Shown piece after piece: positions 54,525 through 54,917 of a DNA stretch of 64,000 nucleotides. The translations under genes and the position numbers were made by a program. The stretch is taken from the NCBI GenBank assembly GCA_965204595.1, contig CBDBEW010000014.1, positions 656,107 to 720,106 of the forward strand. The letters run 5' to 3'. Source of the stretch: Candidatus Aldehydirespiratoraceae bacterium (GTDB lineage Bacteria > Actinomycetota > Acidimicrobiia > Acidimicrobiales > Aldehydirespiratoraceae). The first letter of the stretch is position 1. Each line of letters opens with the position of its first letter. The notes beneath the pieces were generated by a model that did no database searches, had not been told where the DNA came from, and saw nothing but the letters and a program-made list of their open reading frames with translations.

Positions 54525-54917
54525 TTACCTGCTTTCTTGTTGAGACGTGAGAAACAATTTTTCAACACGTTCTTTTACTTGCACACCGTTGAACGGCCGC
54601 CCAATAATTGCTCTTTGTGGCCCAACAATTATTGGGCGCTGAAGAAGCCTCTTGTGTTTGCTTAGCACTTCTACCACTGCATCCGCATTATCAACATAGT
54701 CTGCTTCACATAAATTGAGCTTAGCAAACTGAGCATCATACCGCACCAGACTTTCTGGGGGTTCTTCCAGTTTTTCTATTATGTCACGCAAAGTTGCTTC
54801 GCTAGGGAAGTCTTTCATGTAACGAATTTCTTCAAAATCGATACCTAATTCGGTGGCGACCGCCACAGCATTTTTTGAAGACGTTCAATTCGGGTTGTGA
54901 TATATAGTGAACTTCAT
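54525..54917 (-). CDS. ArsC-family (glutaredoxin-type arsenate-reductase-like) protein with an in-frame UGA at the catalytic-Cys position; candidate selenoprotein (131 codons).
   Basis: ATG 54917 overlaps the glnB stop (ATGA). My translation is [13 protein letters not shown](54885-54887)[14 protein letters not shown]..., to be compared with ArsC ITIYHNPACGTSRNT. The track ORF (GTG 54866) lacks this motif. Confidence 0.6.
54832..54884 (-). promoter_or_regulatory. Candidate bacterial SECIS-like stem-loop downstream of the UGA.
   Basis: The mRNA forms GUGGC-GGUC-GCCAC (54866-54853), with a 5-bp stem and a GGUC loop. It is bracketed by UCAAAA (54878-54873) and UUUUGA (54837-54832). Folded by eye only. 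Confidence 0.35.

Follow-up and report, generated by a model that had tools for sequence, protein, structure and literature searches.

An ArsC-family reductase gene of the Acidimicrobiia with a probable selenocysteine codon at its active site, truncated by gene calling

Among the selenoprotein families known from ocean metagenomes is an 'arsenate reductase' of the COG1393/pfam03960 type, in which selenocysteine (Sec, U) opens a UxxS motif. It was introduced as a new Sargasso Sea selenoprotein family with 14 sequences (Zhang, Fomenko & Gladyshev 2005; PMC1088965), was represented by 77 Sec sequences, as 'ArsC 1, UxxS', in the Global Ocean Sampling (GOS) survey (Zhang & Gladyshev 2008; PMC2398784) and is listed as the arsenate reductase UxxS selenoprotein family in reviews of 2022 and 2026 (PMC9312934, PMC13188914). 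The published members are short, taxonomically unassigned reads or single accessions (AACY01238341, MBT3519430.1). Here we describe what is most probably a further member, encoded in a stretch of 64,000 nucleotides from a Candidatus Aldehydirespiratoraceae bacterium of the Acidimicrobiia (contig CBDBEW010000014.1, positions 656,107 to 720,106), hereafter called the window. A gene on the minus strand of the window, at 54917-54525, contains an in-frame UGA at 54887-54885, for which we place the probability of decoding as Sec at roughly 0.9. The same figure applies to the reading that the gene encodes, as judged from its sequence, a 130-residue glutaredoxin-type (R773/YfgD-like) ArsC-family reductase with Sec as the sole catalytic nucleophile of a UxxS motif.

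Like the UxxS family, the window gene belongs to pfam03960/COG1393, is TIGR00014-like, has Sec at the position of the catalytic Cys with a bacterial Sec insertion sequence (SECIS) just downstream, and comes from marine-type metagenomic bacteria. Since the U-T-S-S of the window and the U-N/T/Q/S-S-S found in 76 relatives fit the published UxxS definition, the gene can be regarded as a new member of the known family, and the ArsC-like selenoproteins of marine metagenomes, which an initial annotation of the window had mentioned, are indeed on record. In contrast to the published members, the window gene can be assigned to a lineage (Acidimicrobiia and relatives) and occupies a conserved place on the chromosome, near glnB, htrA, ftsY and ffh.

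In the list of open reading frames (ORFs) the gene begins at GTG 54866 and extends to 54525, giving 113 amino acids. When the frame is followed in the 5' direction it reaches an ATG at 54917-54915, so that the full coding sequence, as identified by translation, by Pfam ArsC and by matches to PDB sequences, has 130 codons plus a TAA and only one in-frame TGA, at residue 11. With Cys substituted for U, the 130-residue product scores 49.1 bits against Pfam ArsC (PF03960, gathering cut-off 24) over profile positions 1-73 of 79, as compared with 31.6 bits, from profile position 16, for the 113-residue ORF. This gain agrees with the proposal of the initial annotation that the called start removes the redox-active N-terminus. 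The closest PDB sequences are those of glutaredoxin (Grx)-type ArsC proteins (3rdw, 3f0i, 2mu0 and 1i9d/1jzw, the last two being R773 ArsC), which match over residues 3-111, and the Sec column aligns to Cys12 of 1i9d. The Spx/MgsR family TIGR01617 is matched with 59 bits and its cut-off of 75.05 is missed. As a proxy for the three-dimensional structure we used the AlphaFold model of a Cys-form homologue, P0037, which is 58% identical to the window protein and has a pLDDT of 94.3. It resembles 3rdw and 1i9d with TM-scores of 0.84-0.88 and Spx and YffB more weakly, and by this proxy the window protein is predicted to have the thioredoxin-like ArsC fold.

The catalytic arginines of R773 ArsC have direct counterparts when the window protein is aligned to 1i9d, namely Arg59 (codon 54741-54743; Arg60 of R773 ArsC), Arg94 of a QRP motif (54636-54638; Arg94) and Arg107 of a GRP motif (54597-54599; Arg107), and none of the three varies in the family alignment. 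The only other Cys of the window protein, C70, is not conserved in that alignment, and the enzyme therefore has a single nucleophile and should need an external thiol or redoxin, as R773 ArsC does. Most Actinobacteria lack glutathione. The likeness to R773 ArsC (1I9D/1J9B) and to the YfgD-like ArsC proteins (3RDW, 3F0I) comprises the fold, by way of the Cys-form model, the HNPxC/U-xxS loop, the arginine triad and the single catalytic nucleophile with its expected thiol or glutaredoxin-like partner. The window protein nevertheless differs from these enzymes in having Sec for Cys12, in an identity of just 33-36%, in remaining below the cut-off of TIGR00014, in being encoded outside an ars operon and in an insertion, FNGVQV, after the GRP motif. 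An insertion of six residues at this place (FNGVQV, FEGVMA or LDGSKA; residues ~109-114) is found in the closest homologues of the family alignment, all of which are called truncated, and is missing in the Cys-form relatives and in one truncated form (P0063). The Spx/MgsR and YffB branches share the fold of the ArsC superfamily and are seen as weaker matches in sequence and structure, but compared with Spx/MgsR the window protein has UxxS without the second Cys of the CxxC switch, and it has the three arginines of true ArsC.

How the UGA is to be interpreted can be judged from the relatives of the gene. Among 5.8 billion proteins searched, 71 homologues were recovered, and the corresponding DNA was collected from one genome per species as 80 loci with 10-kb flanks, which together with L001 make 81 related loci. 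The 80 loci are mostly from metagenome-assembled genomes (MAGs) of Acidimicrobiia and include the isolate Actinospongicola halichondriae, one Gaiellales MAG and two Acidobacteriota MAGs. The nearest ~60 homologues are all 100-113 residues long and start with 'M/V-AVATE...' just past the TGA position, whereas the more distant, full-length homologues have TIYHNPNCxSS, in which a Cys occupies the column of the TGA. At the DNA level the codon corresponding to Cys12 is TGA in 76 of the 81 related loci (77 of 82 with the window included) and TGC in the remaining five, which belong to Terrabacter (2), Dermatophilaceae, Kineosphaera and one Acidimicrobiia MAG. A column of TGA and Cys codons is therefore directly observed, and the suggestion of the initial annotation that the TGA falls exactly on catalytic Cys12, together with the U/C column that it expected from Cys-containing homologues, is borne out by the Cys-form relatives and by the ArsC structures alike. 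The peptide (T/A)IYHN(P/Q/K)(N/H) is kept in frame 5' of each TGA, so the close homologues, which the same annotation had allowed might be devoid of the IYHNPxC motif, retain IYHNPx in front of a TGA of their own.

Two single loci of this collection deserve separate mention. A full-length public homologue, P0011 (L086, 30-140, on a TARA scaffold; a cluster of 3 members from 3 ENA contigs), has GGA (Gly) at the Sec codon. Near-identical genomes (L019, L020, L023, L025, L029, L035 and L042) have TGA there, and the GTGGC-GGTC-GCCAC hairpin is still intact 3' of the GGA; the GGA could be an assembly variant or else a recent natural loss-of-Sec allele, whose full-length product would have no catalytic activity. 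The locus L022 (CAXMSE010000034.1) is labelled 'uncultured Gammaproteobacteria bacterium' and bears an Acidimicrobiia-type locus, with a glnB 81% identical to that of the window and an arsC(U) with the same SECIS, followed by htrA and ftsY, and the bin or its label is probably wrong.

The reading frame is likewise supported from the upstream side. The ATG at 54915-54917 overlaps the stop codon of the preceding glnB as ATGA on the minus strand, just as first noted, and an AAGGA motif lies 11 nt 5' of it. An ATG or GTG with a Shine-Dalgarno (SD)-like motif, often AAGGAG or AAGGAC, is found 9-11 codons 5' of the TGA in 49 of 73 distinct TGA loci, and an internal GTG or TTG start with such a motif in just 4 of the 73. 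In the family codon alignment the amino acids I-Y-H-N-P encoded 5' of the TGA are fixed while their synonymous sites are free, Ile being encoded by ATC, ATT or ATA, Tyr by TAC (33) or TAT (31) and Pro by all four of its codons. The pattern is that of a protein-coding sequence and indicates that the N-terminal decapeptide is translated in frame with the rest of the ArsC protein, in which case the UGA must be decoded. A recoded genetic code, held to be unlikely from the outset, does not account for this, since TGA is the normal stop of 24 of the 56 long ORFs of the window, glnB included, and the code is therefore standard. As to the surroundings of the Sec codon, the codon before it is nearly without exception CAT or AAT, so that T stands at position -1 (CAT 44 versus CAC 1; positions 54888-54890 in the window, and the family), and the base following the TGA is A in most family sequences.

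It could be argued that the TGA is nevertheless a true stop, that the product is a 113-residue protein without an active site initiated at GTG 54866, and that the ten upstream codons are non-coding or a leader peptide. Such a reading matches the ORF callers and all public annotations, and would require none of the Sec machinery that was not found in the window, but it leaves a product without strand 1 and the catalytic residue that retains just 31.6 bits to Pfam ArsC. It furthermore has to explain why TIYHNPx stands in frame, with synonymous variation, in 76 genomes, and why SD-like motifs accompany the upstream start and not the internal GTG. The GTG itself (54864-54866) is the codon of Val18 and lies within the 5' arm of a conserved RNA stem, the called 'start' being the first three bases of the hairpin because GTGGC begins at 54866, and it is not a real start as far as these data indicate. 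We therefore consider termination at the TGA very improbable.

This hairpin is the second line of evidence. A stem-loop in the coding sequence directly 3' of the UGA, with GGUC in its apical loop, is what is known from the SECIS minihelix of E. coli fdhF, and the window has a bacterial SECIS apical hairpin of this kind at 54853-54866 on the minus strand, composed of GUGGC (54866-54862), the GGUC loop (54861-54858) and GCCAC (54857-54853), as had been predicted. It begins after 18 nt from the TGA and its loop starts 23 nt after the UGA. The 2005 bacterial SECIS (bSECIS) model of Zhang and Gladyshev reportedly allows a spacing of 16-37 nt between UGA and loop, a range that includes the 23 nt of the window. 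In the minimal fdhF element the stem starts 11 nt after the UGA; compared with this, the family stem starts after 16 nt (18 nt in the window), and the family consensus is a stem of 7 bp without the bulged U.

All TGA sequences can be aligned without gaps in this region and each has, at a fixed distance, a GGCGGTCGCC core in which GGTCGC is invariant, and the element GGCGGUCGCC occurs in every TGA form and in none of the five Cys forms. For 69 distinct sequences the RNAalifold consensus is a single helix of 7 bp (columns 20-26 with 31-37) that closes the GGUC loop. Standard pairs make up 98.3% of the cells of this helix, as opposed to 29-72% in slid registers, and compensatory changes are seen at 3 pairs in 12 cells (GC to UA or CG, CG to GC, and GC to AU). 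None of 500 column shuffles matched the observed pairing or covariation score. The hairpin is made up of six four-fold degenerate codons, A-V-A-V-A-T, and the entropies at their third positions are just 0.54, 0.11, 0, 0, 0.24 and 0.29 bits, whereas in the rest of the gene equally conserved codons for Ser, Gly, Pro, Leu and Val reach 1.2-1.9 bits at that position. Since the synonymous sites of the hairpin are nearly frozen compared with those in the rest of the gene, selection here acts on the RNA and not on the protein. The hairpin is thus both conserved and covarying, and its recurrence together with the in-frame TGA in 76 of the 81 related loci goes well past what chance would produce.

In the window itself the hairpin is of a short form with 5 bp and has C-C and U-C at two basal positions, the window being one of 2 sequences that are unpaired at columns 20/37 and 21/36. 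Where most relatives have two extra G-C pairs at the base of the apical stem, the window instead has lower stems, UCUUCAAAA/UUUUGAAGA and AUGCU/GGUAU, which belong to an extended, window-specific stem-loop at 54824-54886 and are not part of the RNAalifold family consensus. The minimum free energy (MFE) fold of 54820-54890 on the minus strand seats the apical hairpin on the UCUUCAAAA/UUUUGAAGA stem and includes the UCAAAA/UUUUGA pairing that had been put forward as a possible lower stem. It has an energy of -20.2 kcal/mol against a shuffle mean of -12.45 (z = -3.09, 0 of 200 shuffles as stable). Apparently, these AU-rich lower stems, which are specific to the lower-GC window genome, compensate for the short apical stem.

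For the machinery of Sec insertion one has to turn to related organisms. We take Ilumatobacter coccineus, I. nonamiensis and Ca. Microthrix parvicella to be members of the Acidimicrobiales. SelD, SelA and SelB are present in all three, along with 15, 10 and 7 selenoproteins, respectively, according to the supplementary tables of Peng et al. 2016 (PMC5029168), and selA, selC, selD and a divergent selB are present in all 84 complete Actinomarina genomes (preprint 10.64898/2026.04.03.716425). The support for a Sec machinery in the source organism is at the level of the lineage only.

A selenium-independent read-through of the UGA, by a near-cognate Trp or Cys tRNA or by local recoding, with the hairpin as a generic stimulator rather than a SelB-binding SECIS, would leave the reading frame intact and must be weighed at this point, in that the evidence for the machinery is at lineage level and the sequence is compatible with more than one inserted amino acid. 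However, all homologues without TGA have Cys at the column, as is characteristic of Sec/Cys pairs, the loop is GGUC without variation, like the G/U-containing apical loops of known bacterial SECIS elements, and its spacing fits the bSECIS model. The same family is furthermore catalogued as a selenoprotein and the Sec trait is documented in the Acidimicrobiales, and read-through of this kind is accordingly judged to be very unlikely, if conceivable. That the TGA is merely a pseudogene mutation or a miscalled TGC or TGT has hardly any probability left, for although TGA is one base away from either codon and the TARA scaffold with GGA demonstrates that single-base variants exist, 76 independent genomes, obtained in differing studies and on differing sequencing platforms, have the TGA, the downstream frame is intact and it is in the TGA forms specifically that the RNA element is conserved.

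A number of results do weigh against decoding as Sec in an arsenate reductase and should be mentioned together. The top NCBIfam match of the protein (U replaced by Cys), the arsC equivalog TIGR00014, reaches 79.6 bits and stays below the cut-off of 106.05. ARAGORN found no tRNA genes at all in the 64-kb window and no tRNA-Sec in the 80 loci, and tblastn with E. coli SelA, SelB and SelD, which served as probes only, had no hit in the window and none in the related loci (~1.5 Mb), these being the only sequences that the search covered. No arsR, arsB or acr3 was found in any examined neighbourhood, that is in the window and the related loci, and the arsenate assignment is therefore drawn from homology and catalytic residues only. 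The apical hairpin of the window is among the weakest of the family, with 5 bp and -7.7 kcal/mol in a 30-nt window, and hairpin energy was rejected as a discriminator between Sec and Cys forms, since the Cys forms, being from GC-rich genomes, are about equally stable. What distinguishes the Sec forms is the position of the hairpin, its GGUC loop and its covariation. Rfam gave no match at the gathering threshold or at E <= 10, which is uninformative for bacterial SECIS elements and was to be expected, because short hairpins of this kind are poorly represented there.

If decoding as Sec is accepted, the expression and function of the gene may be pictured as follows, where we infer the insertion of Sec, its dependence on SelB, the substrate and the reductant. 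Translation would start at ATG 54917, probably coupled to that of glnB by the ATGA overlap. At the UGA (54887-54885) the ribosome would be served by SelB-GTP-Sec-tRNA(Sec), with the SECIS hairpin tethering SelB and the GGUC apical loop supplying the G and U bases for its recognition, and after insertion of Sec translation would proceed to the TAA at 54525. In the folded protein the selenolate would be placed at the N-terminus of helix 1, ringed by Arg59, Arg94 and Arg107, from where it could attack an oxyanion, by homology arsenate. The resulting adduct would presumably be resolved by an external low-molecular-weight thiol together with a redoxin, there being no conserved second Cys for that purpose.

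The gene is part of a compact group on the minus strand, in the order glnB (P-II), arsC(U), TetR, HtrA-like protease, FtsY and Ffh. The upstream glnB (54914-55252) matches Pfam P-II with 108.8 bits, and the downstream gene for a TetR-family regulator (53889-54521; Pfam TetR_N and TetR_C_20) begins 3 nt past the stop codon of arsC(U). It is probable that glnB and arsC(U) share a transcript and that their translation is coupled through the ATGA overlap. Of the 81 related loci, 47 have a P-II gene on the same strand upstream of arsC, usually with an acyl-CoA synthetase gene between the two, and a TetR homologue lies downstream in 26 of the 81. The block glnB ... arsC(U) ... tetR ... htrA, ftsY, ffh is syntenic in loci L002-L052, and one of them, L006, has exactly the gene order of the window. 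Rieske oxygenase and luciferase-like genes are, in addition to acyl-CoA synthetase genes, found among the further neighbours. Naive ORF calling was dropped for this analysis of context, as it yields spurious antisense ORFs in the high-GC distant loci. The usual actinobacterial cluster is ftsY-amt-glnB-glnD-ffh; neither amtB nor glnD is directly adjacent to the window glnB.

Scans for other selenoprotein genes, by TGA followed by a GGU-loop hairpin, by general TGA extension in the window and by a loosely defined motif resembling GGCGGTCGCC, brought up nothing but noise besides the ArsC gene. Elsewhere in the window, at 13001-24595, an ORF of 792 residues without a Pfam match, an N6_N4 DNA methylase of 852 residues and a ResIII/DEAD helicase protein of 1490 residues are found together with a NYN-domain protein (18811-19533, minus strand), and this region is a probable restriction or defence island.

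As a wider speculation, which we think more likely wrong than right and offer with corresponding reserve, the Sec-ArsC of the Acidimicrobiia may not serve arsenic detoxification but be a vertically inherited housekeeping selenoenzyme at a conserved glnB/HtrA/FtsY/Ffh position, acting on some other oxyanion or on a thiol/selenol redox target, and its near-invariant SECIS across at least two phyla might then reflect one ancient conversion of Cys to Sec under strong selection.

Our knowledge of how selenocysteine is encoded is unchanged by this gene, and its importance lies mainly in annotation. Standard gene callers remove the active-site end of the protein here and in dozens of related genomes of the Acidimicrobiia, an abundant lineage of marine, sponge-associated and wastewater bacteria. 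The public records of the Sec clade (for instance the P0003 cluster, MCQ3806174.1, MCY3850473.1 and MDE0067425.1) are all 5'-truncated proteins of 98-114 residues named 'hypothetical protein' or 'arsenate reductase', none of them marked as a selenoprotein, and selenoproteome counts and functional inference for the Acidimicrobiia are therefore biased. What is added here to a family first seen in anonymous ocean reads is an assignment to a lineage, a place on the chromosome that is conserved, and a SECIS alignment that is clean and shows covariation. With Actinospongicola halichondriae Hal317 (L067) there is furthermore a cultured carrier of the TGA form, in which the insertion of Sec and the real substrate of the enzyme would be testable.

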